NCBI GenBank assembly: GCA_902795275.1
Contig: CADBKQ010000003.1
Location: forward strand, 69,912-133,911
Reading direction: 5' to 3'
DNA: 64,000 nucleotides
Source of the DNA: an uncultured Eubacteriales bacterium
GTDB taxonomy: Bacteria; Bacillota; Clostridia; Christensenellales; Aristaeellaceae
Under the pieces are notes generated by a model. The model was not told the DNA's origin. It saw only the letters and a program-made list of their open reading frames with translations, and searched no databases. Numbering within the stretch: position 1 is the first letter of the stretch; each line of letters starts with the position of its first letter. Made by a program: the position numbers and the translations under genes. Shown here one piece after another: positions 814 to 57,969 of this stretch.

Positions 814-922
814 GTGAGTGTGAGAGTGCAGAGTACAGATCATATAGTGTCGTCAAGTACCGGATTCCGTTTATTGTTCAGGTAAATGAATCTGAACTCT
901 GCACTCTGTACTCTGCACTCTC
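814..922. repeat. Heptad-arm palindromic element, copy A (AGAGTRC class)
   Basis: Perfect 18-bp inverted repeat: gagagtgcagagtacaga (822-839) pairs with tctgtactctgcactctc (905-922). The arms are 7-nt periodic and the loop is 65 nt and AT-rich. The right arm abuts the mutS stop codon (923-925). Confidence 0.9.
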
Positions 923-3520
923 TTATAATTTCATCGCCTTTTCTTTCAGCAAAAACAACTGATTCAGCGCATCAATGGGCGTCATGGCCATGACATCCAG
1001 CTTGCGGACTTCTTCGATGAATTCGGTTTTGGGGTATTCCATTAAATCGACCTGCTCGTTTTTCTTCTTGTGGCCCGCGCCCAGGATGTTCTGGCCGATC
1101 TTGTTGTTGGTCATGTCGTTGACTTCCAGGCGCGCCATGATCTCCTGCGCCCTTGCCACCACGGGCCGGGGGACGCCCGCTAAATGCGCTACGTAAATGC
1201 CGAAGCTCTTGTCCGCGCCGCCGGGGACGATCTTGCGCAGGAAGATGACCTCTTCCCCGTGCTCCTTGACGGACACACAGAAATTGGAAACGCCGTCCAA
1301 ATGTCCTTCCAGCTCGGACAGCTCGTGGTAGTGGGTGGCGAACAGGGTCTTGGCCCCGGACTTCTTTTTGTCGGCCAGGTATTCCACCGCCGCCCAGGCG
1401 ATGGACAGGCCGTCGAAGGTGGAGGTGCCGCGCCCGATTTCGTCCAGAATCACCAGGGACTTGCTGGTGGCGTTGCGCAGGATGTACGCCATTTCGCTCA
1501 TTTCCACCATGAAGGTGCTCTGCCCCGTGGCCAAATCGTCCGACGCGCCGACGCGGGTATACACCCCGTCCACCAGGGAAATGGAAGCGGACTTGGCGGG
1601 GACGAAGGAACCCATGTGCGCCATCAGCGTGATCAGCGCCACCTGGCGCATATAGGTGCTCTTGCCCGCCATGTTGGGGCCGGTGATGATCTGCACCCGC
1701 TTTTCATCGGCGTCCAGGTGGGTGTCGTTGGGGATGAAGCCCTGATCCGGCATGGCGGCTTCCACCACCGGATGCCGCCCGTCCTCGATGTCGATCACGC
1801 CGTCGTCGGTAATTTGAGGCCGCACATAGTGGTTGATCAGCGCCACCCGGGCCAGGCTCAGCAGCGCGTCCAGGGTCTTGTAGGCCAGGGCGGTGGACTG
1901 CAAGCGGGCCATGTTCCGCCCGATTTCCTCCCGGATGCCGTCGAACAGGCCGATTTCCAGCCGGGCGGCCTTGTCCTGGGCGCCGGTCACCTTGCGCTCG
2001 ATCTTTTGCAGCTCTTCGGTGGTGAAGCGCTCGGAATTGGCCAAAGTCTGCCGGGCGATATAGCGCAGGGGCACCTTGTCCCAATTGGACTTGGTGACTT
2101 CGATATAATAGCCGAACACCCGGTTATAGCTGATGCGCAGGTTCTTGATGCCGGTTTCTTCCCGCTCCTTGGCTTCCAGCTCGGCGATCCACGCCTTGCC
2201 GTCGGCGGCGGCTTCCCGGTATTCGTCCAGCTCCTGGCTGTACCCGGCGCGGATGAAATTGCCGTCGGACAGCAGCAGCGGCGCGTCGGGCGAAATGCCC
2301 CGGCGCAATAGGTCGGCCAGCTCGGGCAGCGGGTCCAGCAATTCTTTCAGGAAAGAAAGCGCATCGTCCTCCACGCCCGACAGCAGGTTCAGCACCTCCG
2401 GGGCCTTTTCCAGCGAGCGCAGCAGGCTCAGGCAGTCCCGGGCGTTCAGGGTGTGGTAGCTCACCTTGGAAAGCAGCCGCTCCATGTCGTAAACCTGGGA
2501 CAATTGATCCCGAAGGTTTTCCGACAGCACATGCTGCTTGTACAGCGCTTCCACGGCGGAGAGCCGGGCTTCGATTTTTTCTTTATTCACCAGCGGCTTT
2601 TCCACCCAGGAGCGCAGCAGCCGCCCGCCCATGGCGGTCACGGTCTGATCCAGGATGGACAGCAGCGACCCCTTCGCCGTCCGGCCCCGGATGGTTTCGG
2701 TCAATTCCAGGTTGCGGCGGGTGGAGGCGTCCAGGGGCATCATATCGTTCTTTTCCAGCACCCGGACGCGGGAAATATGCTGCAAGGCGTTTTTCTGGGT
2801 TTCGCTCAGATACCGCATCAGCGCGCCTGCGGCCTGGGCCGCCACGGAAAGGGAAGCGTCCAGGCCCAGGGCGGTGAGGGAATGCACCTGGAAATGGGAC
2901 AGCAGCGTTTCCTTGGCGTTCGCGTTCTGGTACGCGGCGGCGGCATAGCCCCGGCATTTCAGCTGCGTGCAGGGCTGCACAGCCTCCGGGCTGTTGGTGA
3001 TGATTTCGCCGGGGTTCAGGGCGTCCAGCGCGCTCTTGATGGCGGAAGGTGTATTCTCCACCTGCTGCACGTAAAACTCGCCGGTGCTCACGTCGCAGGC
3101 GGCGACGCCCGCCCGCCTGCCGTTGACGCACACAGAGCAGAGGAAGTTGTTCCGCTTTTCCCCGATGACGCTGGAATCCGTCAGCGTGCCGGCGGTAACG
3201 ATGCGGATAATGTCCCGCTCCACAAGCCCCTTGGCCAGCGCCGGGTCCTGCATCTGCTCGCCGATGGCCACCCGGTAGCCCCGCTCCACCAGCCGCGCCA
3301 CGTAGGCGTCCACCGCGTGGTAAGGAACGCCGCACATGGGCGCGCGCTCCTCCAGGCCGCAGTCCTTGCCGGTGAGGGTCAATTCCAGCTCCCGGCTGGC
3401 GGTGATGGCGTCGTCAAAGAACATCTCGTAAAAATCCCCGACCCGAAAAAAAAGCAGGGTGTCGGGGTTCTGTTCTTTCAGCTTCATATACTGCTGCATC
3501 ATCGGGGACAGCGTAGCCAT
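923..3520 (-). CDS. mutS: DNA mismatch repair protein MutS
   Basis: 865-aa ORF starting MATLSPMMQQYMKLKEQNPDTLLFFRVGDFYEMFFDDA, with Walker A GPNMAGKST and full MutS domain order. Confidence 0.97.
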   Translation of the reverse strand: MATLSPMMQQYMKLKEQNPDTLLFFRVGDFYEMFFDDAITASRELELTLTGKDCGLEERAPMCGVPYHAVDAYVARLVERGYRVAIGEQMQDPALAKGLVERDIIRIVTAGTLTDSSVIGEKRNNFLCSVCVNGRRAGVAACDVSTGEFYVQQVENTPSAIKSALDALNPGEIITNSPEAVQPCTQLKCRGYAAAAYQNANAKETLLSHFQVHSLTALGLDASLSVAAQAAGALMRYLSETQKNALQHISRVRVLEKNDMMPLDASTRRNLELTETIRGRTAKGSLLSILDQTVTAMGGRLLRSWVEKPLVNKEKIEARLSAVEALYKQHVLSENLRDQLSQVYDMERLLSKVSYHTLNARDCLSLLRSLEKAPEVLNLLSGVEDDALSFLKELLDPLPELADLLRRGISPDAPLLLSDGNFIRAGYSQELDEYREAAADGKAWIAELEAKEREETGIKNLRISYNRVFGYYIEVTKSNWDKVPLRYIARQTLANSERFTTEELQKIERKVTGAQDKAARLEIGLFDGIREEIGRNMARLQSTALAYKTLDALLSLARVALINHYVRPQITDDGVIDIEDGRHPVVEAAMPDQGFIPNDTHLDADEKRVQIITGPNMAGKSTYMRQVALITLMAHMGSFVPAKSASISLVDGVYTRVGASDDLATGQSTFMVEMSEMAYILRNATSKSLVILDEIGRGTSTFDGLSIAWAAVEYLADKKKSGAKTLFATHYHELSELEGHLDGVSNFCVSVKEHGEEVIFLRKIVPGGADKSFGIYVAHLAGVPRPVVARAQEIMARLEVNDMTNNKIGQNILGAGHKKKNEQVDLMEYPKTEFIEEVRKLDVMAMTPIDALNQLFLLKEKAMKL

Positions 3521-3581
3521 AACGCGCTTGCTCCTTTATGAATCGATTTGAGAAAAAAAGCAGGAAGGACGAGAGATCAGC

Positions 3582-3694
3582 GTACAGAGTGCAGAGTACA
3601 GATTTATATTGTGTACAAATGATGGCTTCTTTCACCGCAAACGCAAAAAAATCTGCGCTCTGACCTCTGTACTCTGTTCTCTATGCTCTGCACG
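3582..3694. repeat. Heptad-arm palindromic element, copy B (AGAGTRC class, degenerate)
   Basis: gtacagagtgcagagtacagat (3582-3603) pairs with atctgcgctctgacctctgtac (3651-3672) at 18/22 positions. The TCTGNNC heptads continue to 3694, directly abutting the stop codon of the ylbF-like gene (3695-3697). Loop is 47 nt. Confidence 0.8.
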
Positions 3695-4090: not shown

Positions 4091-4114
4091 GGTGGTTGCT
4101 CCTTTTCTTCAATA

Positions 4115-4231
4115 AGTTCTAAGTTCTTAGTTACAAGTTCTAAGCTGTTTTGTTTCCAAGTTCATTGCGCGGCAATTGACGTATTTCATCATCCGTCTTG
4201 GCTTAGAACTTAGAACTTGGAACTTAGAACT
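4115..4231. repeat. Heptad-arm palindromic element, copy C (AAGTTCT class)
   Basis: The left arm agttctaagttcttagttacaagttctaagc (4115-4145) matches the reverse complement of gcttagaacttagaacttggaacttagaact (4201-4231) at 27/31 positions. Loop is 55 nt. Confidence 0.85.
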
Positions 4232-4248
4232 AAACACTTGCTTTAGGC

Positions 4249-7401: not shown

Positions 7402-7430
7402 GGGAAGATATATCCTTTCGGGAATCAGTC

Positions 7431-7555
7431 GAGTGAGGAGTTAGGAGTGAGGAGTGAGGAGTGAGGAGTTAAATCTTGCTCTACCATTACCGTTCGGTCT
7501 TGCGTTTTTGCATCCATCTAACCAACTCCTAACTCCTCACTCCTAACTCCTCACT
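7431..7555. repeat. Heptad-arm palindromic element, copy D (GGAGTKA class)
   Basis: The left arm gagtgaggagttaggagtgaggagtgaggagtgaggagtt (7431-7470) is the inverted repeat of aactcctaactcctcactcctaactcctcact (7524-7555). Loop is about 53 nt. It ends 7 nt from the stop of the upstream radical SAM gene. Confidence 0.9.
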
Positions 7556-7561
7556 AAAAAT

Positions 7562-9463
7562 TTACTCCGCCAGCGGCGCACTGGTCTTTGCCTTGCCTTT
7601 CAGCGGCGGGTCTTTCACCCAGTCGCATACGCCCCAGGTGTGCAGGCCGCAGCCGTTGCAGCCGTGGCGGCAGTCGGGGGTGGTCTGGGTCTGCTTGGCC
7701 TTTTCGTTCTCGCGTTTCAGATAGGCCATGCTCACGCCCGCGTCGATGAATTCCCAGGGCAAAAGCTCGTCGTAGGGCCTCTCCCGGTGGGCGTAGAACG
7801 CGGGGTCCAGGCCGCAGTCTTCAAAGGCGCCCATCCACTGGTCGAACTTGAAATGCTCGTTCCAGCTGTCTAAGCGGCAGCCCCGCTTCCAGGCGGCGTA
7901 AATCACCTCGCCGATGCGCCGGTCGCCCCGGGAAATGCAGGCCTCCAGCATGGACAGCTCGCTTTCGTGCCAGTTGAAATGCACGTTTTTCAGCTTCAGA
8001 TACTGCCGCAGGGCCGCCTGCTTTTCGTGGACGGTGTCGATGGTGTCCTGGGCAGCCCATTGGAAAGGCGTGAAAGGCTTGGGCACGAACACGGACGCGC
8101 TGGCCGTCACCCGCACGCCGCTCTTGGCCCGCTGTTCCTTGGGCACGCGGTAGAAGGCGTCCACCACCTTCTTGGCCAAATCGCCGATGCCCCGCAAATC
8201 CTCGTCAGTTTCGGTGGGCAGGCCCATCATGAAGTACAGCTTCACGCTGCTCCACCCGCACTCAAAGGCGTCGGTGACGGAGCGGATCAAGTCTTCCTCC
8301 GTCACGCCCTTGTTGATGACATCGCGCAGCCGCTGTGTCCCCGCTTCGGGCGCCAGGGTGAGGCCGGACTTTTTCACCTGCTGAGTTTCTTCCAGGGATT
8401 GCTTCACGATGTTGTCGATGCGCATGCTGGGCAGGGACACGCTCACCCGCTTGTCCCGGTAGCGGTCCATCAATGCCTGAATCAATTGCGGCAGGCAGGT
8501 GTAATCCCCGCTGGACAGGGAGGACAGGCTCATTTCCTCATAGCCCGTGGACTGCTGCAATTTGTCCGCCAGCTCCAAAAGCCGTTCCATGCTGCGCTCC
8601 CGCACGGGCCGGTACAGCATTCCCGCCTGGCAGAAGCGGCAGCCCCGGGTGCAGCCCCGCATGATTTCCAGCACCATGCGGTCATGGACGATTTCGGTGT
8701 AGGGGACGGGGATGGACTCGGGATAAATCGCGTTGGACAAGTCCTTGACCACCCGCTTTTTCACCTTCGCGGGGGCCGCCGGGTCGTTGGGCTTGAAGGA
8801 TTTCAGGGTGCCGTCCCCGTTGTAGCTGACGTCGTAGAAAGCCGGAACATAAACCCCTTCCAGCTTCGCCAGGTTCCGCAGAATGTCGATGCGTTTCAGC
8901 CCTGCCACCCTGCCGTCCCGGATCACGTCGATCAGCTCGTGCATCACGTCCTCGCCGTCGCCGATCATAAAGGCGTCGATGAAGGGGGCCAGGGGTTCGG
9001 GGTTAAAGGCGCAGGGCCCGCCCGCCACCACGATGGGGTCGGCCTCGGCCCTCTCCTCCCTGCGAATCGGTACCCGGCCCAAATCCATCATTTCCAGGAT
9101 GTTGGTATAGCTCATTTCGTATTGCAGGGTGAAGCCGATGATGTCAAATTCATTCAGCGCCGCCCGGCTTTCCAGAGAGAACAGCGGCACGCCGGCCTCC
9201 CGCATCTTGTCCGCCATGTCGGCGTCGGGCATGAACAGCCGCTCGCACAGGGCGTCGGGGCGTTCGTTGATGAGATAATACAGAATCTTCATGCCCAGGT
9301 GGCTCATGCCGATTTCGTAGGTGTCCGCGAAGCAGAAGCCGAAGGTGCACTTCACGCTGTTCCAGTCCTTGCGCACCGCGTTCATTTCGCCGCCGGTATA
9401 GCGGGCGGGCCGCTGCACCGTTTCCAGCAGTTCTTCCAGCTTCCTGTTTTCCAGGTCGTTCAA
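7562..9463 (-). CDS. TIGR03960-family B12-binding-domain radical SAM protein
   Basis: The body matches this family (ARYTGGEMNAV..., radical SAM motif RGCTRGCRFCQAG). The 720-aa track ORF has an implausible N-terminus. I place the start at the TTG at 9463, preceded by a GGGGGA RBS, so the start is uncertain. Confidence 0.8.
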   Translation of the reverse strand: MNDLENRKLEELLETVQRPARYTGGEMNAVRKDWNSVKCTFGFCFADTYEIGMSHLGMKILYYLINERPDALCERLFMPDADMADKMREAGVPLFSLESRAALNEFDIIGFTLQYEMSYTNILEMMDLGRVPIRREERAEADPIVVAGGPCAFNPEPLAPFIDAFMIGDGEDVMHELIDVIRDGRVAGLKRIDILRNLAKLEGVYVPAFYDVSYNGDGTLKSFKPNDPAAPAKVKKRVVKDLSNAIYPESIPVPYTEIVHDRMVLEIMRGCTRGCRFCQAGMLYRPVRERSMERLLELADKLQQSTGYEEMSLSSLSSGDYTCLPQLIQALMDRYRDKRVSVSLPSMRIDNIVKQSLEETQQVKKSGLTLAPEAGTQRLRDVINKGVTEEDLIRSVTDAFECGWSSVKLYFMMGLPTETDEDLRGIGDLAKKVVDAFYRVPKEQRAKSGVRVTASASVFVPKPFTPFQWAAQDTIDTVHEKQAALRQYLKLKNVHFNWHESELSMLEACISRGDRRIGEVIYAAWKRGCRLDSWNEHFKFDQWMGAFEDCGLDPAFYAHRERPYDELLPWEFIDAGVSMAYLKRENEKAKQTQTTPDCRHGCNGCGLHTWGVCDWVKDPPLKGKAKTSAPLAE

Positions 9464-9639
9464 AAGGTCGTCCCCCCAACAATCAATCCATATAGAACCA
9501 ATGTATATTGTATCATTCTTTCCGCCGTTTGTCCATGTTTTCAGCGGAAAAACGAAGGCGGTTTTGGCTGTTGAACATTTGCTGCGGGGATGGTATACTG
9601 TATCCGTATCCACGCAAAGAAAAGATGTGAGGTTGACCC

Positions 9640-11046
9640 ATGGCGAAAGCAGCGGTAAACAAGAAAGAAATGTTTGAAACCATGCCTGTGCCCCAGGCGC
9701 TGGCGGCCATGGCGGTGCCGACAATCATCAGCCAATTGATCACGCTGATCTACAACATGGTGGACGCCTTCTTTATCGGCCAGACGGGCAATTCCTTCAT
9801 GGTGGCGGCGATCTCCCTGACGCTGACGCTGGTGATCATGCTCACCTCCCTGTCCAACCTGTTCGGCGTGGGCGGCGGCAGCCTGACCGCCCGGCTGATG
9901 GGCGTGAGCCAGGACGAGGAAGCCCGGCGCGTGAGCGCGTTCAGCGTGTATGGAGCTATCGCCGTGGCGCTGGCGTATTCCCTGCTCATCGGCTTGTTCA
10001 TGAATCCGCTGCTGTATTTCCTGGGCGCGTCGGAAGCGACCATTGCCTACGCCCGGCAGTATACCTTCCTGGTGATCGTGCTGGGCGGCGGGTTCAGCAT
10101 GGTGAGCATGACGGTTGCCCACCTGCTGCGAAACGCGGGATATTCTTCCCAGGCCAGCATGGGCCTGAGCCTGGGCGGCGTGCTGAACATGGCGCTGGAC
10201 CCGCTGTTCATGTTCGTGCTTTTGCCCCGGGGCAGCGAAGTGATCGGCGCGGCGCTGGCGACGCTGCTTTCCAATATGGTCTCCTGCGGCTATCTGCTGT
10301 TTTCCTATCGCAAAGCCGCCCGAACCGCGGCGCTCAGCCTGAGCCTGAACCAGGCGCGGAAGGTGAAGAAAGACAGTATAAAAAAGGTGTTCGCCGTGGG
10401 CGTGCCTTCCGCCATTCTGACGGGGCTGTTCGACCTGGCGAACGTATGCGTGAACATGCTGGCCTCCGCCCACAGCGACATGGCGCTGGCGGGCATGGGC
10501 ATCGTCATGAAGGTGGAGCGGGTGCCCAACGCCGTCAACATCGGCATCTGCCAGGGGGCCATGCCGATCATCTCCTACAACTATTCCTCCGGCAACCATG
10601 AGCGCATGAAAAAGACGATCCGCACCGCGCGGCTCTGGGGTCTGATCGTTTCCTTCGCGTCCATCGCCCTGTTCCAGCTTTTCGCCGGGCAGGTGACGCG
10701 GCTGTTCATGAGCACCAGCCGGGGCGACCTGGACAACGCCCTGCGCACCATCGCCTACGCCACCCTGTTCCTGCGCATCCGCTGCTGCGCGTCGCCCTTC
10801 CAGTTCCTCAACTACCACACCTCCTTCTCCATGCAGGCCATGGGCAACGGCAAGGCCACCATGCTGCACGCCTTCGTGCGGGAATTGGTGTTCTACATTC
10901 CCTTCATGTTTCTGCTGGATCGGCTGTTCGGCGAAACGGGCCTGGCCTGCGCCCTGATCGCGGGCGAGTTCTGCGGGGCCATGTTCGCCCTGTGGCTGAT
11001 GCGAAGGGCCATGAAGCAGGCAGGGGAACGGGGTGCGGGCGTATGA
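9640..11046 (+). CDS. MATE-family efflux transporter
   Basis: 468-aa polytopic ORF whose N-terminus (MPVPQALAAMAVPTIISQLITLIYNMVDAFFIGQ) is the MatE signature. Confidence 0.9.
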   Translation: MAKAAVNKKEMFETMPVPQALAAMAVPTIISQLITLIYNMVDAFFIGQTGNSFMVAAISLTLTLVIMLTSLSNLFGVGGGSLTARLMGVSQDEEARRVSAFSVYGAIAVALAYSLLIGLFMNPLLYFLGASEATIAYARQYTFLVIVLGGGFSMVSMTVAHLLRNAGYSSQASMGLSLGGVLNMALDPLFMFVLLPRGSEVIGAALATLLSNMVSCGYLLFSYRKAARTAALSLSLNQARKVKKDSIKKVFAVGVPSAILTGLFDLANVCVNMLASAHSDMALAGMGIVMKVERVPNAVNIGICQGAMPIISYNYSSGNHERMKKTIRTARLWGLIVSFASIALFQLFAGQVTRLFMSTSRGDLDNALRTIAYATLFLRIRCCASPFQFLNYHTSFSMQAMGNGKATMLHAFVRELVFYIPFMFLLDRLFGETGLACALIAGEFCGAMFALWLMRRAMKQAGERGAGV

Positions 11047-13210: not shown

Positions 13211-14227
13211 ATGAAAGCATTATTCATCGGCGGGACGGGCGTAATCAGCACGTCCATTTCCCAGCTGCTGGTCTCCCAGGGCTGGGACCTGACCCTGCTC
13301 AACCGGGGCAATCGGCAAAGCGACGTACCCGGCGCGAAGCAATTGATCCTGAACGTGAACGACGAAGCGGCGGTGGCAAAGGCCATCGAAAACGAACATT
13401 TCGACGTGGTAGCGGACTTCATCTGCTTCGTGCCCGCCCAGGCGGAGCGGGATATTCGGCTGTTCAAAGGAAAGACCGACCAGTACATTTTCATCAGCTC
13501 GGCCAGCGCCTACCAAAAGCCCTTGGCCCATCCCGTCATCCGGGAATCCACGCCGCTTTCCAACCCCTACTGGGAATACTCCCGGAATAAAATCGCCATT
13601 GAAGAGCTGCTCATGCGGGAATACCGGCAAAACGGCTTCCCCATCACCATCGTGCGCCCCAGCCACACCTTCTCCTGGCGCTCGCTGCCGGTTGCCATCC
13701 ACGGGGACAAAGGCCCCTGGCAGGTGGTAAAGCGCATGCGGGAAGGCAAGAAAGTGCTCATGCCCGGCGACGGCAGCAGCCTGTGGGCGGTGATGAACAG
13801 CGAAGACTTTGCCCCGGCGTTCGTGGGCCTAATGGGCAACATCCACGCCATCGGCCAGGCGGTGCAGATCACCGGCGAAGAGCTGCTTACCTGGAACCAG
13901 ATCATGGAAAGCATCGCCCGGGCCGCGGGCGGGGAATACAGGCCCTGCTATGTGCCCACCGATGTGCTCATGCAAACCAAGAAATACGACTTCACCGGCG
14001 CGCTGCTGGGCGACAAATCCAACACCGTAATTTTCGACAACTCCCTGCTGCATCGCCTGGTGCCGACGTTCCAACAGCGGCGCACCTTTGACCAGTGCGC
14101 GAGGGAGAGCGTTGCCTACTTCCTCTCCCATCCCGAAATGCAAACGGAAGACCCGGACTTTGACGCCTTCTCCGACGCCCTTGTGGACATCATGGAAGAC
14201 GCGGCGGAAAAGGTCAGGAGAATATAA
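13211..14227 (+). CDS. NAD-dependent epimerase/dehydratase-family (extended SDR) protein
   Basis: 338-aa ORF with the Rossmann motif MKALFIGGTGVIS. Confidence 0.75.
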   Translation: MKALFIGGTGVISTSISQLLVSQGWDLTLLNRGNRQSDVPGAKQLILNVNDEAAVAKAIENEHFDVVADFICFVPAQAERDIRLFKGKTDQYIFISSASAYQKPLAHPVIRESTPLSNPYWEYSRNKIAIEELLMREYRQNGFPITIVRPSHTFSWRSLPVAIHGDKGPWQVVKRMREGKKVLMPGDGSSLWAVMNSEDFAPAFVGLMGNIHAIGQAVQITGEELLTWNQIMESIARAAGGEYRPCYVPTDVLMQTKKYDFTGALLGDKSNTVIFDNSLLHRLVPTFQQRRTFDQCARESVAYFLSHPEMQTEDPDFDAFSDALVDIMEDAAEKVRRI

Positions 14228-14232
14228 GGGCA

Positions 14233-14279
14233 CGCCGGCAGACAGGCGTTTTGAATTTTCAAACGCCTGTCTGCCGGCG
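14233..14279. terminator. Bidirectional hairpin between convergent genes
   Basis: 19-bp perfect stem: cgccggcagacaggcgttt (14233-14251) pairs with aaacgcctgtctgccggcg (14261-14279). Confidence 0.75.
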
Positions 14280-14289
14280 ATTTCTTGGT

Positions 14290-15726
14290 TTAGCACACGC
14301 CTTCATTTTCCTTTGGCTCCGTCACATGCGTCAGGTTCTGAATCCACCTGCCGGATCTGACGAAGAAATAGCCGATTACGCATTTGATCAGGTTGGCCGC
14401 CTCCACAACGGCAAAGGTGACCACGATATCCGCCTGAACCACCTTGACCATCAGCAGCGCCAGAGGCACGGAAATCGCCCAGGTGTAGCCGCTGTCAAAC
14501 AGGAAGGTGATGATGGTCTTGCCGCCGGAGCGCAGGGTGAAATAAGAGCAGTGGGCGAAGGCGTAGAGCGGCATGGCGCAGGCGGTGACGATGAGCAGCC
14601 GGGACGCCATGTCGCGTACGTCCTGGGTGACGCCGCTGTAAGCGTTGGGAATCAGGGGCGCGAAGAGGATCAGCGGAATGCCCATGGCGATGGCGCCCGC
14701 CACGCCGAAGGCAATCAGCTTCCATACGTCGCCCCTGGCCTTCTCAAAGTCCCCCGCGCCCAGGGCCTGGCCCACCATGACCGCCACCGCCGTGCCCATG
14801 GACATGTACACGGAATTGAACAGGTTGGAGATGGTGAACGTGATGCTGAGCGCCGACACCACCACCAGCCCGCAGAGCGAATACACGGCGGTCAGCGCAC
14901 TCATGCCCACGGACCAGAGCACTTCGTTCAGCAGCAGCGGCGAGCCCATGCGCAGCACCTTCCTGAACAGCGCGGCGGGCACCTTCAGCGTGCGGTACGC
15001 TCCTTCGATAAAGACGAAGCGCTTGTGATGCTTATGCGTGAAGCCCATCACGATGCCCAGCTCCACATAGCGGCTGATCACCGTGGCCATCGCCGCGCCC
15101 ACCACTTCCAGGCGCGGAAAGCCGAATTTGCCGAAAATCAGCAGGTAGTTGAACACCGCGTTGGTGCAGACCGCCGCCACGCTGGCCAACATGGGCAGCC
15201 GGGTCTCCCCCATTTCCCTGAGCGTGCCGGCGTAGCACTGGCTGAGGGCGAAGGCGGGCAGGCCGAACAGCATCACCAGCAGGTAATCCCGCCCGTTCTT
15301 CAGCATCTGCTCCGCCAGCGCCGGGTCGCCGTCGCCCTGCAAGAACAGGGAAATCAGCGGCCGGTTGAACCCGATGAACGCCACAAACGCCACCGCCAGC
15401 AGCGCCAGCGATTCCAGCAGCTTGATGCGGAAGGTGTGCCGCACGCCCTCAATATTCCCGGCGCCGAAATACTGCGCGCCGAAAATGCCCGGCCCCGCCA
15501 GGCCGCCGAAGATGGCCAGGCTGAACACAAAATTCAATTGGTTGGCAATGGACACGCCGCTCATCTGCGCGTCGCCCAGCGCGCCGACCATCAGGTTGTC
15601 CAGAAAGTTGACGAAATTGGAAATACTGCTTTGGATGATCACGGGAATAATGATCGCCAGCACCGCGCGGTAAAAAGCGCGGTCGCCGATCAGGGTGCGC
15701 TTGGCCTTGGCAAGCATGGAAGCCAT
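14290..15726 (-). CDS. MATE-family efflux transporter
   Basis: 478-aa polytopic ORF. The motif VIIQSSISNFVNFLDNLMVGALG is MatE-like. Confidence 0.9.
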   Translation of the reverse strand: MASMLAKAKRTLIGDRAFYRAVLAIIIPVIIQSSISNFVNFLDNLMVGALGDAQMSGVSIANQLNFVFSLAIFGGLAGPGIFGAQYFGAGNIEGVRHTFRIKLLESLALLAVAFVAFIGFNRPLISLFLQGDGDPALAEQMLKNGRDYLLVMLFGLPAFALSQCYAGTLREMGETRLPMLASVAAVCTNAVFNYLLIFGKFGFPRLEVVGAAMATVISRYVELGIVMGFTHKHHKRFVFIEGAYRTLKVPAALFRKVLRMGSPLLLNEVLWSVGMSALTAVYSLCGLVVVSALSITFTISNLFNSVYMSMGTAVAVMVGQALGAGDFEKARGDVWKLIAFGVAGAIAMGIPLILFAPLIPNAYSGVTQDVRDMASRLLIVTACAMPLYAFAHCSYFTLRSGGKTIITFLFDSGYTWAISVPLALLMVKVVQADIVVTFAVVEAANLIKCVIGYFFVRSGRWIQNLTHVTEPKENEGVC

Positions 15727-15965
15727 CCGGGTTTCACCTCGTTGAATTCAGAAATCTTCATTTCCATTATAGGGCAAGTGAAGCGCTTGTCAAGCAGGGC
15801 GCGCTTCCAAATATTAAGATTGTTGGAAATTTTGCGGTTTTTGTTTGAAAAGGCTTTATTTTCGCGCCTTTTGTGGTATAATAGGAACGATATGTGTCCA
15901 TTGAGAAAGCGTATGATTCTATTTGTTTTTCTGTGATTTTACCATGCGGTTGCAGGAGTAGAACG

Positions 15966-17872: not shown

Positions 17873-17905
17873 AAAATGACCGTCCCTGAAAAGGGCGGTC
17901 ATTTT
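17873..17905. terminator. Bidirectional hairpin
   Basis: aaaatgaccgtccc...gggcggtcatttt has an A-run before and a T-run after. It lies between convergent genes and overlaps the stop of the M23 gene. Confidence 0.7.
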
Positions 17906-18474
17906 ATTGTGGATTCAGGCCAATCCATCGGGCGGGGAACGCCGTTTTCCAGCAGGGTCACGCAGATGTGCCCGGCGCCTTCATAGGGTACGCGCCCTCC
18001 GGCCCTTCCCAGCACAGCGCCTTTGCGCACCGTCTGGTCGGGCGACACATCGATTTGTTTCAAGCCCCGGTACAGGGTTTCCAGCCCATCCCCGTGATCG
18101 AGGCGCACGCAGCCTTCTTCGCAGGACACCACCATTCCCGCCAGCATGGCGTACACCCTGTCTCCCGCCACCGCCTCAAAGTCTGCGGCAGGATGAACGC
18201 GCCACATGCGGGAGGCGGGAAAGAACACGGGCGCATCACTGTACCCGCGAAGCAGCTTGCCTTCCGCCGGTCTGCCATAGTCTTTCTCCTCCGGCGGCGG
18301 CGTAACCTGGGAAAGCCTCTGGCTCTGGTCGGACAGCGCCTGACGCCCGCTGATTTCCCCGGCCCGCTGCTCCCGCGTCCAGGCCGCCGACAGCAGAATC
18401 ACCCCCGCGCACAGCAGCGCCAGCAAATAATGTCCCCAGCCCTCAAAGCCGCGGCGAAGACGTTTTAGCATCAT
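17899..18474 (-). CDS. M23/LytM-family peptidoglycan metalloendopeptidase, N-terminal membrane anchor
   Basis: 191-aa ORF with a TM helix (HYLLALLCAGVILLSAAW) and a LytM-like C-terminal domain (HPAADF...DHGDGLETLY...G...H). Confidence 0.75.
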   Translation of the reverse strand: MMLKRLRRGFEGWGHYLLALLCAGVILLSAAWTREQRAGEISGRQALSDQSQRLSQVTPPPEEKDYGRPAEGKLLRGYSDAPVFFPASRMWRVHPAADFEAVAGDRVYAMLAGMVVSCEEGCVRLDHGDGLETLYRGLKQIDVSPDQTVRKGAVLGRAGGRVPYEGAGHICVTLLENGVPRPMDWPESTIK

Positions 18475-18504
18475 GATACTCCTGGATTGGACACTATCAG
18501 TAAC

Positions 18505-18618
18505 GGAGGGATTAGGGAATAGGGATTAGGGATTAGTTATTTTGTTTTGCTATTTCGTTAGTTTCCAATCGTGTTGCACACGATCTTTACAAATCCCTAT
18601 TCCCTAATCCCTAATCCC
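18505..18618. repeat. Heptad-arm palindromic element, copy E (TAGGGAT class)
   Basis: The left arm ggagggattagggaatagggattagggattag (18505-18536) is the inverted repeat of aatccctattccctaatccctaatccc (18592-18618). Loop is about 55 nt. Confidence 0.9.
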
Positions 18619-18662
18619 TTTTTAACTTAAAGGTTCCTCTCAGCAACAAATCATTCCCCGTC

Positions 18663-19901
18663 TTACTGGTAAATCCTCCCCAGCGTGGTATTGTCCAGCG
18701 TGCGGTTCTGCAATCCGGGAATGGGGCTGGGGGCGACCTCGGCGCGGTAGTCCTTCCCGCGGCGGCGGATGGCCCGATCGATCACCTGATGGCTGGGCAC
18801 CGTGTCCACGTTGGCGTTCACCGCCTTCTGATACACAAAGAAATCATAGTCCTTGGGCAGCATGTTCACGGGCTTGAAGATTTCCTTTTCCGCCGTGAAA
18901 TCCACCATGTTCAGCGCGGCGCGGATATAGTCGATGTTGGATTCAAAATGGAAGGGCTCGGGGAATTCCCCGCCGGGAATCACCTGCTGCCAGTCCTTCT
19001 TTTCGTACTGCCTGAGCAGGTCGGCGGCCTTGTGCAGGTGGCTGACTTCCATCTGGAAGAAGTCCTCCCATACTTTCCGCACGTTCTGGTCGGTCTCGTC
19101 CTCCATGCAGGAGTAATAGAGATACGCCTCCACATACTGGTGCATCAGCAGCCCTTCCAGCCAGGAGCAGTTGGGGTCCAGGAGGCTTCCGTACTGGGTC
19201 ACGTGCTGCTCCTCGATCATGCCGATTTCCTGGTACAGCTTGCGGCCCAGGTCAGAGGTGTAGAAGCCGCACACGTTCATGTAATAGTTCATGGTCTGCT
19301 GCTCGGCGGCGGTAATGATCTGCACCGCCATCTTGTCAAACAGCGCGGCGTCGGGCTTGCCGGGCATGCACAGGGCGTCCATGGGGCAGCGGTGCTCGGA
19401 GATGGTGGGGCGGCCCGGCATGATTTCCGTGTATTCGCCCACGAACTTTTCCGCGTACTGGCCATGCTCCATTTCCATCAGGTCGGCGTAGCGGTACAGG
19501 TGGTCGAAGTCCTCCAGCAGCGCAAAGTCCAGGGCGGATTTCACGTTGGCGCAGGTGACGCGCTTCGCCAGCCCGGCGGTCAGATCGACAGCCAATTGCT
19601 CATAGCCGATGGTGTGCTCCAGCACGGTTTCGTCCATAGGCTTTAAGCACGCGATTTTCTTTTGCTGCTGCTGTTCCTGGCGGCGCATCATGGCCAGCTC
19701 CCGGCGCAGGTCGTTGTTGCTTTCGTGGCGGTGGAACTGGTGGGAATACCCGGCGGACTCAAACTCCGTGCCGTTCATCAGGATGACGCGCACCCGGGTG
19801 TAAGGGTCTGTTTCCATCTTGTCATAAGGGGCGGGATAGAGGCGCTGCCAGTCCATGAACTGGTCGGCTGTCTTTTCGGGTTTCAATTGAAACGGATTCA
19901 T
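18663..19901 (-). CDS. Ferritin-like/di-iron-carboxylate-like protein of unknown function
   Basis: The start MNPFQLKPEK at 19901 has an AGGAGG RBS. EXXH motifs are present (MEMEHGQ, IEEQHVTQ). No closer family recognised. The track ORF start at 20078 is an extension. Confidence 0.55.
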   Translation of the reverse strand: MNPFQLKPEKTADQFMDWQRLYPAPYDKMETDPYTRVRVILMNGTEFESAGYSHQFHRHESNNDLRRELAMMRRQEQQQQKKIACLKPMDETVLEHTIGYEQLAVDLTAGLAKRVTCANVKSALDFALLEDFDHLYRYADLMEMEHGQYAEKFVGEYTEIMPGRPTISEHRCPMDALCMPGKPDAALFDKMAVQIITAAEQQTMNYYMNVCGFYTSDLGRKLYQEIGMIEEQHVTQYGSLLDPNCSWLEGLLMHQYVEAYLYYSCMEDETDQNVRKVWEDFFQMEVSHLHKAADLLRQYEKKDWQQVIPGGEFPEPFHFESNIDYIRAALNMVDFTAEKEIFKPVNMLPKDYDFFVYQKAVNANVDTVPSHQVIDRAIRRRGKDYRAEVAPSPIPGLQNRTLDNTTLGRIYQ

Positions 19902-29606: not shown

Positions 29607-29720
29607 GAGAGTTCAGAGCACAGAGTTCAGAGTACAGATCATATCGCAATACCGCTTTGAATTCTTTGAATGAGCAGACCATATCAATCTGGACTCTGCA
29701 CTCTGTACTCTGTACTCTGA
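29607..29720. repeat. Heptad-arm palindromic element, copy G (AGAGTRC class)
   Basis: The left arm gagagttcagagcacagagttcagagtacagatc (29607-29640) is the inverted repeat of tctggactctgcactctgtactctgtactctga (29688-29720). Loop is 47 nt. It begins 16 nt after the alr stop. Confidence 0.9.
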
Positions 29721-31639: not shown

Positions 31640-32266
31640 ATGTCTACCAATCGCCTGATGACCTTTGAACTGCTGGACCGTATGGAGCAGCTCCTTTCGG
31701 AAGCCTGGGCCGTTCCCCTGACCAAGAAATTCATGCTGGACAAGGAAGAATTCTCCAGCCTGATGCGCCGCCTGGAAGAAAGCATTCCCGTGGACGTGCA
31801 GAACGCCAAGACCATCATCGACCAGGAAGAAAACATCATCAACGAAAGCAACCGCATCGCCGAGGAAACCACCCGCACCGCCAGCGCCGAAGCGCAGGCG
31901 ACGGTGGACAACGCCAAGCAGGAAGCCAACGCCATGGTGAACGACGCCCAGGCCCGCGCCGCCGAAACCCTGCGCACCTCCACCGACCAGGCCAACGCCA
32001 TGGTCGCCGACGCTCAGACCCGCGCCAACGCGCTGGTGGCTGACGCCCAGGCCCGCGCCGCCCAGATGGTGGCCGACAGCGAAATTGTGGCCCGCGCCCA
32101 GGCCCAGGCCCAGGAAATGCTGGAAAGCGCCCACCGGGACTGCGAAGCCTACACCGCCCGGGTGCACGACTCCATCAACCAGCTCATGGAGCAGCTGGAC
32201 ATCAGCGTGAACCAGCAGGCCGAGGCCGTCCGCGCCCTGCGGCAGCAGTACGCCAACCCGCAGTGA
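31640..32266 (+). CDS. Ala/Gln-rich coiled-coil protein, function unknown
   Basis: 208-aa ORF with internal repeats (ANAMVNDAQARAA / ANAMVADAQTRAN / ALVADAQARAA). GGAGG RBS at 31625-31629. Confidence 0.6.
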   Translation: MSTNRLMTFELLDRMEQLLSEAWAVPLTKKFMLDKEEFSSLMRRLEESIPVDVQNAKTIIDQEENIINESNRIAEETTRTASAEAQATVDNAKQEANAMVNDAQARAAETLRTSTDQANAMVADAQTRANALVADAQARAAQMVADSEIVARAQAQAQEMLESAHRDCEAYTARVHDSINQLMEQLDISVNQQAEAVRALRQQYANPQ

Positions 32267-32275
32267 GACAAGACA

Positions 32276-32603
32276 ATAGGGATTAGGGATTAGGGATTAG
32301 GGATTTGTTATAGAGTACAGAGTTATATGGTCGATCAATTCTGGATTCCGCAGCATGTTCACTCTATCATCTGATACTATTCTCAAATCAAACAAGCTAA
32401 TCAGAATCATTCAGGTAACGTTGTCATTCTTGTCATCCTGAGCGCGCTCGGCCGCGAAGGACCTCCCTCGTTTATGACCCCAGAAGCAGGGGAGGTCCTT
32501 CGACTCCGCTTCGCTCCGCTCAGGATGACAGCGAAGCGCGGATGACAGAACTGTTCCCTCGTATTTGCTGTATGAACTCTGCACTCTGTACTCTGTACTC
32601 TTC
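32276..32603. repeat. Composite repeat locus F: orphan TAGGGAT array plus an AGAGTRC-class element with an expanded loop
   Basis: aatagggattagggattagggattagggattt (32276-32306) has no inverted partner. It is followed by the short arm agagtacagagtt (32312-32324). The matching far arm is gaactctgcactctgtactctgtactcttc (32574-32603). Confidence 0.85.
32432..32529. repeat. Nested palindrome (GTCATCCTGAGCG...CGCTCAGGATGAC) inside the loop of locus F
   Basis: Outer 13-bp inverted repeat at 32432-32444 and 32517-32529. Inner 12-bp inverted repeat gaaggacctccc (32456-32467) pairs with gggaggtccttc (32490-32501). Confidence 0.85.
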
Positions 32604-32647
32604 TCTCCGCCATAGGCGCTGATGATTGATTTTTTTGTGAAAATCCC

Positions 32648-32676
32648 TTGACATCCGGCGGCCTGATGGATATACT
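32648..32676 (+). promoter_or_regulatory. Sigma-A-type promoter of rpmH
   Basis: TTGACA (32648-32653), a 17-nt spacer, then TATACT (32671-32676). Confidence 0.7.
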
Positions 32677-32763
32677 ATAATGGCTGTTTTGTGGTGTATT
32701 GCCTCATTACGCGCAGAATAATGCCATCTGGCATTTCGGATTTTAAAAGGAGTTGTTGTTGTC

Positions 32764-32898
32764 ATGAAACGTACCTATCAGCCCAAGAAACGCCAGCGCA
32801 ATAAGGTGCATGGTTTCCGTGCCCGCATGAGCACCAAAAACGGCCGCAAGGTGCTGGCCCGCCGCCGCAATCGTGGCCGCAAGGAGCTGACGGTCTGA
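32764..32898 (+). CDS. rpmH: 50S ribosomal protein L34
   Basis: My translation gives [44 protein letters not shown] (44 aa). It is below the ORF-track length cut-off. AAGGAG RBS. Confidence 0.97.
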
Positions 32899-45275: not shown

Positions 45276-45349
45276 GGGATTATAGCTCAGTTGGTTAGAG
45301 CGCCACGTTGACATCGTGGAGGTCATAGGTTCGAGCCCTACTAATCCCA
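45276..45349 (+). tRNA. tRNA-Val (anticodon GAC), CCA not encoded
   Basis: Manual cloverleaf: acceptor gggatta/taatccc, D-arm gctc-agttggtta-gagc, anticodon stem ccacg/cgtgg with loop ttGACat, T-arm atagg-ttcgagc-cctac. Confidence 0.93.
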
Positions 45350-45354
45350 CTTTC

Positions 45355-49728: not shown

Positions 49729-49755
49729 TTCTTTTTCCAGCCCTTTCGGGTAACA

Positions 49756-49865
49756 GGAGGGATTAGGGATTAGGGAATAGGGATTAGGGAAGATAGTGTA
49801 CAATACGATTGGAAGTAAACGAAAGAGTAAAACAAAATGACTAATCCCTATTCCCTAATCCCTCC
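49756..49865. repeat. Heptad-arm palindromic element, copy H (TAGGGAT class)
   Basis: The left arm ggagggattagggattagggaatagggattaggga (49756-49790) is the inverted repeat of taatccctattccctaatccctcc (49842-49865). Loop is 51 nt and matches the reverse complement of the copy E loop. Confidence 0.9.
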
Positions 49866-49905
49866 TTCGTTACATAAATCGCCCCTCCAAGCCGTCCTCG
49901 CCCAA

Positions 49906-57888: not shown

Positions 57889-57969
57889 TGCTCCTTCCTC
57901 TTCCCCTGAATTGTAGCACAGGAATGCTTTTTGCGCAAGGCGGGCATGATAGGCAGGGGAGGAATGAAC

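Follow-up and report, generated by a model that had tools for sequence, protein, structure and literature searches.

Two look-alike hairpins, E and H, in a 64,000-nucleotide stretch of DNA from an uncultured Eubacteriales bacterium (contig CADBKQ010000003.1; this whole stretch is called the window below) are probably old, partly eroded copies of a TAGGGAT-armed subfamily of a non-autonomous foldback MITE with IS66-type (ISBst12-group) ends. The MITE family occupies intergenic spacers of this bacterium of about 60% G+C, which to judge by its gene content and the sample labels is probably a Clostridia-like organism of the rumen. It is dispersed, inserted in either orientation, present or absent from strain to strain, flanked by an 8-bp duplication and bounded by termini matching those of IS66. 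An intact member is 165–180 bp long and consists of four parts: 14-nt termini of the pattern GTATC/GTAAC-NN-TTCAGYC, an outer segment of 10–35 nt, three to six tandem heptamers per side, which form a stem of 20–35 bp with the G- or purine-rich version 5' on both strands, and an A/T-rich loop of 40–60 nt with its own polarity. What began as a puzzling pair of similar hairpins becomes a mobile-element family for which the ends, the target duplication and a candidate family of transposases can be named.

Structure of E and H

The E loop (18539–18586, plus strand) and the reverse complement of the H loop (49791–49838) are identical at 40 of 48 positions in an ungapped alignment, which reproduces exactly a manual count in an earlier note on this DNA. 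The best ungapped match of the two loops in the same orientation is 20, and 2000 shuffled versions of the H string gave at most 27 matches to the E loop. By blastn-short the loops share 41 of 49 positions (E-value of 0.002 in a 0.95-Mb database), and their Smith-Waterman score lies at z=15.7 against shuffles. The arms of both elements are tandem TAGGGAT/TAGGGAA heptamers in inverted orientation, with perfect inverted pairing over 21–23 bp.

Element E, including outer segments, heptamer arms and loop, covers 177 nt (18489–18665) on the minus strand, strands being assigned by the 5' to 3' reading of the motif at the arm-loop junction, here AGATCGTGT. The limits of 18505 and 18618 given previously were too narrow: the inverted repeat extends to 18489–18537 and 18589–18637, the outer segments are conserved in the family alignment, in which similarity spans 18489–18665, and the outer end at 18665 is a strain breakpoint. 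The left arm (18505–18536) has four and a half TAGGGAT/TAGGGAA heptamers and is G-rich on the plus strand, with four G3 tracts. It is followed by the loop (18537–18591; 32–33% G+C), which contains the palindrome ATCGTGT-TGC-ACACGAT at 18565–18581, and by the right arm of complementary ATCCCTA heptamers (18592–18620). The end beside the start codon of the M23 gene is truncated or overwritten; the opposite end retains a degenerate terminus, CTTAC (18661–18665). Element H (49749–49875, plus strand) runs from GTAAC to GTTAC around its arms, its outer segments being eroded. It has a left arm of TAGGGAT/TAGGGAA heptamers with five G3 tracts (49757–49790), a loop (49791–49842) of which the first 48 nt are the part matched to E, and a right arm (49843–49864). 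Its junction motif, AGATAGTGT, reads on the plus strand, and thus the H loop is inverted relative to that of E.

Both elements lie between minus-strand genes and their loops nevertheless point in opposite directions, as had been proposed; gene calls and junction motifs bear this out. H is placed between genes for DUF4422 (48997–49728) and GT4 (49906–51096). E is placed between an M23 peptidase gene (17899–18474), in agreement with the earlier annotation, and an unannotated gene of 412 aa (18663–19901); the latter had been called ferritin-like, an assignment that fell away because its product has no ferritin-like or other match in Pfam or NCBIfam. Neither E nor H retains the intact 14-nt termini, only degenerate ends being kept, and no target duplication is recognisable around them. 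No empty allele of either site was found among the compared strains. Since E and H have neither a duplication of their own nor an empty allele, we infer their insertion from membership of the family.

The RNA of E is predicted to fold at −56 and −59 kcal/mol (z about −7.7) and that of H at −47 and −53 kcal/mol. At the gathering threshold, Rfam recognised only a tRNA-Val in the whole window, and E-value scans of E and H gave best scores of 18–28 bits, against thresholds of 52–135, to eukaryotic miRNA hairpin models only. Scans around both elements revealed no promoter or terminator consensus inside them, and in-operon copies have no U-tract on the transcribed strand.

Heptamer-armed hairpins in the window

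The window holds at least eight heptamer-armed hairpins (A–H), seven intact and one composite, with a single shared architecture and four arm units (CAGAGTA, TAAGTTC, GAGTGAG and TAGGGAT). Members of the family are 110–182 bp long, with A/T-rich loops of 40–60 nt that are too short for a gene. The density is about one element per 8 kb (eight in 64 kb), and further members are found in sister strains. Element A (817–924, plus strand; CAGAGTA/CAGAGTG arms) begins directly after the stop codon of MutS in the MutS/MutL spacer, and in an 87%-identical lineage this site is empty, with a spacer of 31 nt. Element B (3572–3694, plus strand; CAGAGTA arms) lies between YlbF and MutS, where a related lineage has two genes (GT2 and GtrA) instead. 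Element C (4113–4238, minus strand; TAAGTTC arms) is located between MiaB and YlbF, and a radical-SAM gene and DUF2344 flank element D (7428–7555; GAGTGAG/GAGTTAG arms); in the related lineage each of these two sites holds a CAGAGTA-armed element. Site H is likewise occupied by an element of a different class there, the lineage compared being 87% identical for sites C and D and 88.6% identical for site H. In the sister lineage L186, a classical GTAG-tagged REP doublet, which is a different element, is found at the RNaseG|MiaB site. Element F (29608–29719, plus strand; CAGAGTA arms) has alanine racemase on one side and a gene of 271 aa on the other, both on the plus strand. The composite G (32277–32601, plus strand) is made up of a solo array of four TAGGGAT units (32277–32305), a partial CAGAGTA element (32306–32385), an unrelated GC-rich palindrome (32433–32528) and a solo array of CAGAGTA complements (32576–32601). 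Another inverted repeat, at 57874–57978, was rejected as an element, as it reflects the likeness of the ribosome-binding sites and start regions in a pair of divergent genes.

G3 tracts are limited to the TAGGGAT class and are missing in the other arm classes. When all the loops in the window were compared pairwise, the E/H pair alone was significant, the match between A and G being weak, and a single loop consensus for all arm classes was rejected on this ground. All that appears to recur across classes is a short motif at the junction (CATATNGT) and the richness in A of the far end of the loop.

Dispersed copies and strain comparisons

A metagenome scan with the loop pattern found the whole arms-plus-loop unit on six contigs representing five sites, the other 59 of the 65 matches being due to chance. 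At these five sites the loops are about 90% identical, the flanking genes are unrelated to those of the window, and both orientations occur, so that the proposal of a discrete duplicated unit of arms plus loop has gained five further cases. Including E and H, seven distinct sites of this type are known. The loop is directed opposite to the flanking genes at four of them and in the same direction at two, and one lies between divergent genes; this mixture agrees with the suggestion that insertion takes place irrespective of the direction of transcription. In viral contigs, all six matches to the loop pattern were chance matches in coding DNA, and no match was found to a terminus combined with a TAAGTTC array. 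BLAST searches of PLSDB plasmids with E and with a 167-bp MITE described below gave no match. A scan of a genome collection by arm pattern detected arrays from many phyla, none of them with the E/H loop, so that the arms by themselves do not identify the family.

At site E, seven other spanning strain contigs (L190, L193, L200–L203 and L002) have the element at the same place and in the same orientation with an identical loop. These strains show 96.6–99.5% ANI where measured, and L002 comes from another sample. Their arms differ by one heptamer or one base. The homology of L203 to the window stops exactly at 18665, the outer terminus of E, so that such elements mark rearrangement breakpoints, the synteny of this strain ending at the terminus. 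At site H, the orientation is kept in L194, L198 and L199, where the arms are shorter by as many as two heptamers and the loop shows one substitution. Between 95%-identical lineages, the spacer at site H has 5 differences in 163 nt, and the loop 1 in 51, compared with about 10% at flanking third codon positions. This low divergence hints at constraint or recent recombination, unlike what would be predicted for pure junk DNA. Length polymorphisms at the strain level make these elements useful as markers and a nuisance for short-read assembly.

Filled and empty sites and IS66-type termini

Evidence for mobility comes from sister elements. A 167-bp element in L193 (16700–16866) is missing in both the window and strain L190, these strains being 96.6–98% identical. 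It begins with GTATCTGTTCAGTC, ends with GACTGAATAGTTAC and is flanked by a perfect 8-bp duplication, CACAAATC. A 182-bp element in L190 (19362–19543), with the ends GTATATGTTCAGCC and GACTGACCTGTTAC, is absent from the window and is flanked by AATTGGTT and AATTGGCT, a duplication matching at 7 of 8 positions. The target duplication is thus seen in the sister elements and not in E or H themselves, while a TAGGGAT-class copy of the E/H type, L125, retains one intact terminus, GTAACAGTTCAGTC. Placing the left boundary of the 167-bp element 5 nt further in gives a 13-bp duplication with one mismatch. This 13-bp version was dropped after comparison with an insertion sequence on the Geobacillus kaustophilus plasmid pHTA426; the 8-bp version has no mismatch and yields the same GTATC/GTAAC asymmetry as the pHTA426 element, and is preferred for these two reasons.

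The pHTA426 insertion sequence (14107–15741) has the ends GTATCTATTCAGCC and GGCTGAATAGTTAC and an 8-bp duplication, GACGAGTT, and its single ORF encodes an IS66-family transposase (PF03050, 1.9e-64; NF033517, 1.5e-99); it is one of the single-ORF IS66 elements of the ISBst12 group. It shares with the MITE a common 14-nt terminal pattern, including GTATC at the left end and GTAAC at the right end: GTATCTATTCAGCC and GTAACTATTCAGCC in pHTA426 correspond to GTATCTGTTCAGTC and GTAACTATTCAGTC in the MITE, with 12–13 of the first 14 nt identical. ISDge4 of Deinococcus geothermalis, also of the IS66 family and ISBst12 group, has the inverted repeats GTGACTACTCAGCA and GTAACTGCTCAGCA and an 8-bp direct repeat (PMC12898284), and the 8-bp target-site duplication is common to the MITE, the pHTA426 element and ISDge4. 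The elements described here differ from an IS66 insertion sequence in that they are 110–180 bp long and non-coding and have an internal heptamer foldback that is missing from the IS. They thus combine the features of a MITE (small non-coding units, terminal inverted repeats, target duplication at filled/empty sites and dispersed copies) with those of the ISBst12 group of IS66 (an inverted-repeat start of GTAA/GTAWC, the terminal pattern, and an 8-bp duplication, perfect in one case and 7/8 in the other). The preference for a MITE-like element over an oriented cis-regulatory RNA, expressed in the earlier note, is accordingly strengthened by dispersal, presence/absence, terminal repeats, duplication and IS66 termini.

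The same note had suggested looking for a transposase or recombinase gene with these arms at its ends. With the pHTA426 transposase as tblastn query, neither the window nor the compared loci, about 1.5 Mb that included about 200 kb of this lineage, yielded an IS66-family transposase gene, and a search of all compared loci for paired IS66-like termini 0.1–3.5 kb apart yielded no convincing full-length parent element. The sequence shared with an IS proved to be the 14-nt outer terminus, not the heptamer arms. Because the transposase gene was not found, we infer a trans-acting enzyme only from the termini and the target duplication. IS66-like termini were not found beside heptamer arrays of other phyla, and the MITE explanation is therefore not extended to those arrays.

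Proposed origin and fate of the elements

The copies would owe their movement to a DDE transposase of the IS66 family, acting in trans from a gene elsewhere in the genome. As a MITE can insert either way, the loops of E and H would come to be opposite relative to their genes. After insertion each copy would be inherited vertically; replication slippage would add or remove one heptamer at a time in the arms, and the outer ends would decay or be overwritten by signals of the adjoining genes. In read-through operon transcripts the element might form a hairpin of −47 to −59 kcal/mol, which might act as a substrate of RNase III, a barrier to exonucleases or a pause site for RNA polymerase. An effect of this sort at the RNA level would presumably be a by-product of selfish mobile DNA and not the reason why the sequence exists. 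With about one element per 8 kb between cistrons, the family is likely to shape the processing of operon transcripts in an abundant uncultured lineage of the gut or rumen. For annotation, such spacers should be masked as MITEs instead of being mined for riboswitch or sRNA candidates.

Whether the arms are of TAGGGAT, TAAGTTC or CAGAGTA, the termini and the layout of the loop are the same, and the G- or purine-rich arm always comes first. It counts against the MITE explanation that different heptamers on related frameworks need a concerted change of both arms. Hairpin-templated conversion combined with slippage seeded by the transposon end is a candidate mechanism. The CAGAGTA arms begin with GTGAGAG-TTCAGAG-TACAGAG, a hint of end-seeded slippage. 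If the heptamer stem evolves in concert on both sides of a conserved framework by a general mechanism, many heptanucleotide pairs in bacteria might be arms or relics of foldback MITEs; we regard this as a speculative extension with a low chance of being correct. If it is true, the stem would be more than a passive feature, and the pairs concerned would include many from the commonest class of long simple repeats, the STRRs of cyanobacteria and the G4 repeats of Xanthomonas.

Alternative explanations

The arms could be heptanucleotide simple-sequence repeats (SSRs) that arose by slippage in place, the inverted pairs being kept as useful hairpins or G-quadruplexes and the likeness of E and H being due to local duplication or gene conversion; the host would use them as terminators, mRNA stabilisers or structural elements, in line with a proposal made for Xanthomonas and its GGGAATC arrays. 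Heptamer arrays of the TAGGGAT type are indeed present in many phyla, an inverted partner lies no more than 200 nt away in 16 of the 98 arrays that could be assessed, always with the G-rich arm first (16/16), and paired arrays often follow directly after a stop codon, sometimes with a T-run thereafter. Xanthomonas has 70–75 convergent pairs per genome (PMC4692102), arm lengths vary between our strains by whole heptamers, and the arms of E and H have three to five G3 tracts; the left arms of E (four tracts) and H (five) show the tandem series of at least four G3 tracts with 7-nt spacing that is typical of the putative quadruplex-forming heptamer SSRs of the GGGNATC type. However, G tracts are missing in the other arm classes, and the in-operon copies have no U-tract on the transcribed strand. 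Slippage also leaves unexplained the identity of about 90% among 50-nt loops at seven unrelated sites, the conserved outer segments and 14-nt termini, and the clean insertions of 167–182 bp with target duplications between near-identical strains. The filled and empty sites largely refute an SSR origin in this lineage, and we consider it unlikely. It is still less likely that the element is an oriented functional RNA (a cis-regulatory leader, an intercistronic processing signal or an sRNA gene) in which the loop sequence matters. The loop is well conserved between copies and strains and includes a 7-bp palindrome, the predicted hairpin is very stable, and the elements lie in transcribed spacers of operon-like gene rows, all of which such an RNA would lead one to expect. 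However, substitutions in the palindrome of H, L132 and L171 are uncompensated, the loops of E and H point opposite ways between genes transcribed in one direction and orientation is mixed across sites, no Rfam family or promoter or terminator consensus was detected, the adjoining genes are functionally unrelated, and sister elements come and go between strains.

Two further explanations concern the mode of movement. In size, extragenic position and layout of two inverted arms plus a spacer, E and H fit REPINs (PMC3116915), that is, doublets that a RAYT (Y1/HUH) transposase mobilises in the form of single-stranded hairpins, and the REP doublet of the sister lineage would be compatible with their presence. 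Movement of the RAYT/IS200 type, however, proceeds by single-strand peel-and-paste chemistry, gives no target duplication and can do without inverted repeats at the ends; the present family has both an 8-bp duplication and termini of the IS66 type. Its arms are heptamer arrays that lack internal dyad symmetry, not palindromic REPs, and the GTAG/CGTC tag is missing at the arm feet of E and H. This origin appears highly improbable. The least probable of the explanations considered is that the loop is an invertible segment flipped by recombination between the arms, E and H representing the two states of a switch. The perfect inverted arms could support flipping, and the 88.6%-identical lineage does have a related loop at site H in the opposite direction; yet this allele has CAGAGTA arms and hence is a different element, not a flipped one. 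No flip was observed at E in the seven other spanning strain contigs or at H in the three other strain sequences, and no recombinase gene is adjacent.

Relation to known repeats

Bacterial MITEs such as Correia of Neisseria, RUP of pneumococcus and Nezha of cyanobacteria are small, non-coding elements with terminal inverted repeats and a target duplication, and they form many dispersed intergenic copies in either orientation with presence or absence from strain to strain. The family described here shares these traits of size, terminal repeats, duplication, dispersal and polymorphism. Unlike other MITEs, its stem consists mostly of a 7-nt tandem array that is specific to each subfamily (TAGGGAT, TAAGTTC, CAGAGTA, GAGTGAG or GAGGTAG), while the outer ends and the loop layout are shared. 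Eukaryotic foldback (FB) transposons are kilobase-scale elements in which long inverted arms of short tandem repeats surround a middle segment; the likeness to the present elements is architectural only, and the transposases are unrelated.

Rehm et al. (2015; PMC4692102) treated the convergent GGGAATC heptamer pairs of Xanthomonas as simple-sequence repeats that may form quadruplexes. These pairs resemble the present elements in having G3 heptamers, a preference for about four units, the G-rich strand first, an intergenic position near the upstream stop codon and length variation between genomes, but no conserved loop, terminal repeats or target duplication, all present here, have been reported for them. 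REPINs and BIMEs (Bertels and Rainey, 2011; PMC3116915) are similar as long-lived, non-autonomous extragenic hairpins of about 100–150 nt with two inverted arms and a spacer. Their arms, however, are palindromic REPs with a GTAG/CGTC tag, moved by RAYT with no duplication, in place of heptamer arrays with IS66-type termini and an 8-bp duplication. The STRRs of cyanobacteria and the TAACTGA repeats of Beggiatoaceae (MacGregor, 2015; PMC4679880) are also intergenic 7-nt tandems of two to six copies with a scattered phylogeny, but they are mostly solo direct arrays beside start codons, outside any defined transposable unit, with only one inverted case of TAACTGA in the BOGUAY genome. The present family joins two separate literatures, that on bacterial heptanucleotide arrays, which continue to be described as of unknown origin and function, and that on MITEs. 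The rule that the G-rich arm comes first, followed by all 16 inverted heptamer pairs from unrelated phyla, holds in Xanthomonas as well.

The heptamer-armed hairpins

Elements E and H, two hairpins with arms of tandem TAGGGAT heptamers, belong to a family of non-coding foldback elements that is dispersed and varies between strains, with IS66-type termini and duplications of 8 bp. Members of this family occur in either orientation, and their arms vary in length by whole heptamers. In E, a left arm at 18505-18536 (GAGGGATTAGGGAATAGGGATTAGGGATTAG) and a right arm of complementary heptamers at 18592-18620 enclose a 55-nt loop, and H shows the same arm-loop-arm layout at 49757-49864. The earlier note had counted 40 identities in 48 loop positions; this count holds exactly, without a gap, between E 18539-18586 and the reverse complement of 49791-49838, while the best ungapped match of the two loop strings in the same orientation is 20. 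None of 2000 shuffles exceeded 27 matches, blastn-short aligned 41 of 49 positions (E=0.002), and Smith-Waterman alignment with shuffles gave z=15.7. RNA folding of E and H yields hairpins of -47 to -59 kcal/mol (z -6.3 to -7.8). Both lie, as noted before, between minus-strand genes, those for an M23 peptidase and a 412-aa protein in the case of E and those for DUF4422 and a GT4 glycosyltransferase in the case of H. The label "ferritin-like" for the gene upstream of E has no Pfam or NCBIfam support. Its 412-aa product (18663-19901, minus strand) is conserved in every strain, matches no Pfam or NCBIfam family, and has a top match at E=0.17.

The 64-kb window (~60% G+C) contains seven intact hairpins of this design and one composite, each hairpin consisting of three to six tandem heptamers, a loop of 40-65 nt (30-44% G+C) and complementary heptamers. 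The arms are built of CAGAGTA in A (817-924), B (3572-3694), F (29608-29719) and the composite G (32277-32601), of TAAGTTC in C (4113-4238), of GAGTGAG/GAGTTAG in D (7428-7555), and of TAGGGAT in E (18489-18665) and H (49749-49875). All eight are housed in short spacers flanked by co-directional genes, several of them immediately after the upstream stop codon. The 5' arm is G-rich or purine-rich on either strand, except in the compositionally neutral TAAGTTC class. Gene content (YlbF/YmcA, CdaA-YbbR and rnpA-yidC-jag) and sample labels point to a probable Firmicute-like lineage.

Repeats pile up at 32267-32640, between a 208-aa gene and rpmH with its promoter (TTGACA..TATACT near 32650-32680; ATG at 32766). 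This stretch holds a solo TAGGGAT x4 array immediately 3' of the stop codon, a partial CAGAGTA element, its loop matching one in the metagenome contig L132 at 87% identity, a 96-nt GC-rich palindrome (32433-32528, GTCATCCTGAGCG...CGCTCAGGATGAC) and a solo CAGAGTA-complement array. The 208-aa gene has no family match, and its coding sequence includes a 33-nt tandem repeat at 31991-32077 (2.1-2.4 copies, 75-83% matches). A 21-nt inverted repeat reported by a repeat finder at 57874-57978 was set aside as the near-identical ribosome-binding-site and start regions of two divergent genes (GGAGSAATGAACATGAAAAG).

Copies elsewhere and their orientation

A degenerate loop pattern had 65 matches in metagenome contigs, of which six (L125, L126, L128, L132, L142 and L171) are complete E/H units at five distinct sites; the remainder were dismissed as chance. 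L128 and L132 represent a single site seen in two samples, with a one-heptamer difference between them. The loops of these copies are ~90% identical to that of E, AGGGATTAGGGAATAGGGATTAG is preserved as the core of the arms, and similarity extends past the arms, where an outer inverted repeat follows (consensus GGACACTTTAAGTTATAAAA / TTTTATAACTTAAAGTGTCC). The neighbouring genes, which bear no relation to those of the window, are gmk, UDG/dut, NYN/DeoR, metN and a uridine-kinase-like gene. Across seven sites, a small sample, the direction of the loop relative to the flanking genes is mixed, being opposite at four, the same at two and between divergent genes at one, and therefore no strict orientation exists.

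Ends, target duplication and the IS66 link

Three TAAGTTC-armed elements missing from the window were found in the strain contigs L193, L190 or L200. The cleanest polymorphic insertion is a 167-bp unit at L193 16700-16866. The empty allele in the window and L190 reads TTTT-CACAAATC-ATATC and the filled allele TTTT-CACAAATC-(GTATCTGTTCAGTC...GACTGAATAGTTAC)-CACAAATC-ATATC, the unit having terminal inverted repeats and a perfect 8-bp target-site duplication around it. A second insertion, of 182 bp (L190 19362-19543), has ends GTATATGTTCAGCC...GACTGACCTGTTAC and flanks AATTGGTT/AATTGGCT; the window allele at this site is not pristine and may carry an excision footprint. The terminus GTAAC-NN-(G/T)TCAGTC occurs four times in ~250 kb of lineage DNA, and every occurrence marks the outer limit of a heptamer-armed element. 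It is present in the TAGGGAT-class copy of L125 as GTAACAGTTCAGTCATTGC-TTAAAGGACACTTTAAG-TAACGGA-arms and degenerate in E (CTTAC, last base 18665). Homology between the strain contig L203 and the window ends exactly at 18665, which independently marks the boundary of E. Past this outer terminus, L203 1-138 is unrelated to the window from 18666 onward, and the break comes either from rearrangement at the end of the element or from an assembly join made at a repeat.

ISDge4 of Deinococcus geothermalis, an IS66-family member of the ISBst12 group, has inverted repeats GTGACTACTCAGCA / GTAACTGCTCAGCA and an 8-bp direct repeat (PMC12898284). An IS66-like element on the Geobacillus kaustophilus plasmid pHTA426 (14107-15741) has ends GTATCTATTCAGCC...GGCTGAATAGTTAC and a perfect 8-bp duplication, GACGAGTT; its sole ORF, of 485 aa, encodes an IS66-family transposase (PF03050 1.9e-64, zf-IS66, NF033517 1.5e-99). 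The 167-bp element matches the pHTA426 ends at 12-13 of 14 positions and shares with it the asymmetry of GTATC (left) and GTAAC (right) as well as the duplication length of 8 bp. On these grounds the family is filed as MITEs with IS66 (ISBst12-group) ends. CAGAGTA-class arms start GTGAGAG-TTCAGAG-TACAGAG, where the core of the terminal repeat seems to have multiplied by increments of 7 nt. A look for a trans-acting transposase or recombinase had been suggested as well; neither an IS66 transposase gene nor a full-length partner element is present in the window or in any locus analysed, and E and the 167-bp element have no match in PLSDB or IMG/VR.

Strain comparison

Syntenic contigs from other samples, 87%-99.5% identical to the window in nucleotide sequence, were reached via protein-cluster members of window genes. 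Seven other strain contigs cross the whole loop at site E (L190, L193 and, like these at 96.7-99.5% identity, L200-L203, plus L002 from another sample), and every one of them has the element in the same orientation with an identical loop; differences in its arms are limited to one heptamer or one base, and three more contigs reach only the M23-side arm. At site H, L194 (98%) has the window's element, L198 and L199 (locally ~95%) have it shortened by two heptamers and with a single substitution in the loop, and L195-L197 (88.6%) have half a CAGAGTA-armed element with a related loop start in reversed direction. In the lineage at 87% identity (L186-L189), nothing but a 31-nt MutS-MutL spacer is left at the empty site A, site B has two genes in place of the element, and sites C and D have CAGAGTA-armed elements with different loops. 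Two spacers empty in the window are filled in this lineage, one by a heptamer element and the other by a classical GTAG-tagged REP doublet. The elements thus persist through a few percent of divergence and have turned over once it reaches about 10%.

In L186, GT2 and GtrA-like genes lie between YlbF and MutS (8799-9984); they are absent from the window (3538-3694), where element B occupies the gap and so coincides with a 1.2-kb difference in gene content. At sites C (4113-4238), D (7428-7555) and H (49749-49875), comparison with L186 and L195 shows elements of another heptamer class, whose loops are either different or inverted. These class swaps in 87-89% lineages suggest post-stop-codon insertion hot spots or inter-copy conversion. 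Synteny with the 98%-identical L194 ends at ~45307, adjoining tRNA-Val (45276-45350). Past this point, which may be the edge of a tRNA-associated island, L194 continues instead with an HD-domain gene, several small ORFs and a DnaG_N-like gene.

Origin and working of the elements

The earlier note favoured a MITE-like element over an oriented cis-regulatory RNA. This reading gains support and specificity from the IS66-type ends, 8-bp duplications, dispersal, strain polymorphism and occurrence in either orientation. An invertible switch would show a flipped loop within otherwise identical arms; no such allele occurs among the compared strains, which argues against it. Slightly at odds with pure neutrality, the H spacer of the locally ~95% lineages differs at 5 of 163 nt (loop, 1 of 51) and is more similar than the flanking genes, whose third codon positions differ by ~10%, which hints weakly at constraint or at recombination in the recent past.

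As MITEs, intact copies would be moved by an IS66-family DDE transposase from elsewhere in the genome, and E and H would be old insertions with decayed or overwritten outer ends. The M23-side end of E merges into the M23 ribosome-binding site, and the outer remains of H are only GTAAC...GTTAC around the arms. Their opposite loop directions would record the direction of insertion. The foldback may bring the two ends together for the transposase, and the stem (21-30 bp) in read-through transcripts is a candidate substrate for double-strand-specific RNases or a possible exonuclease barrier.

Relation to known repeats

MITEs as a kind are already known. A variant that combines IS66-type ends and a subfamily-specific heptamer foldback stem has no earlier description in the literature searched; here it is densely placed between the cistrons of an uncultured high-G+C Firmicute-like lineage. 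Among the long simple repeats of bacteria, heptanucleotide arrays are the most frequent, as quoted in a later paper (Mrazek 2007, via PMC4679880). GGGAATC arrays of Xanthomonas form 70-75 convergent inverted pairs per genome, lie near the upstream stop codon, prefer four units and are quadruplex-capable, and no function was found for them (PMC4692102). When the TAGGGAT arm pattern was scanned against one genome per species, arrays of this type were matched in Acidobacteria, Planctomycetes, Cyanobacteria, Bacteroidetes, Chloroflexi, Firmicutes and others. An inverted partner lies within 200 nt in 16 of 98 assessable arrays (loci L004-L101, many phyla), most of these pairs being short-looped and some terminator-like. 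The G-rich arm comes first on both strands in all 16 and the C-rich arm in none, the same rule as in the Xanthomonas pairs. The arrays from other phyla have no IS66-like termini and are therefore not claimed as MITEs.

In shape, REPINs come closest among bacterial elements, but the identity fails on two defining features, since the heptamer-armed elements have arms that do not consist of REPs and do have a target duplication. In the RNaseG/MiaB spacer of L186 (6724-6850), two inverted GTAG-tagged palindrome copies (GTAGGGGCGGATATGATCCGCCC) lie ~60 nt apart as a classical REP doublet or REPIN-like structure, absent from the window, where RNaseG and MiaB abut. This doublet hints at an additional, RAYT-type system in the group.
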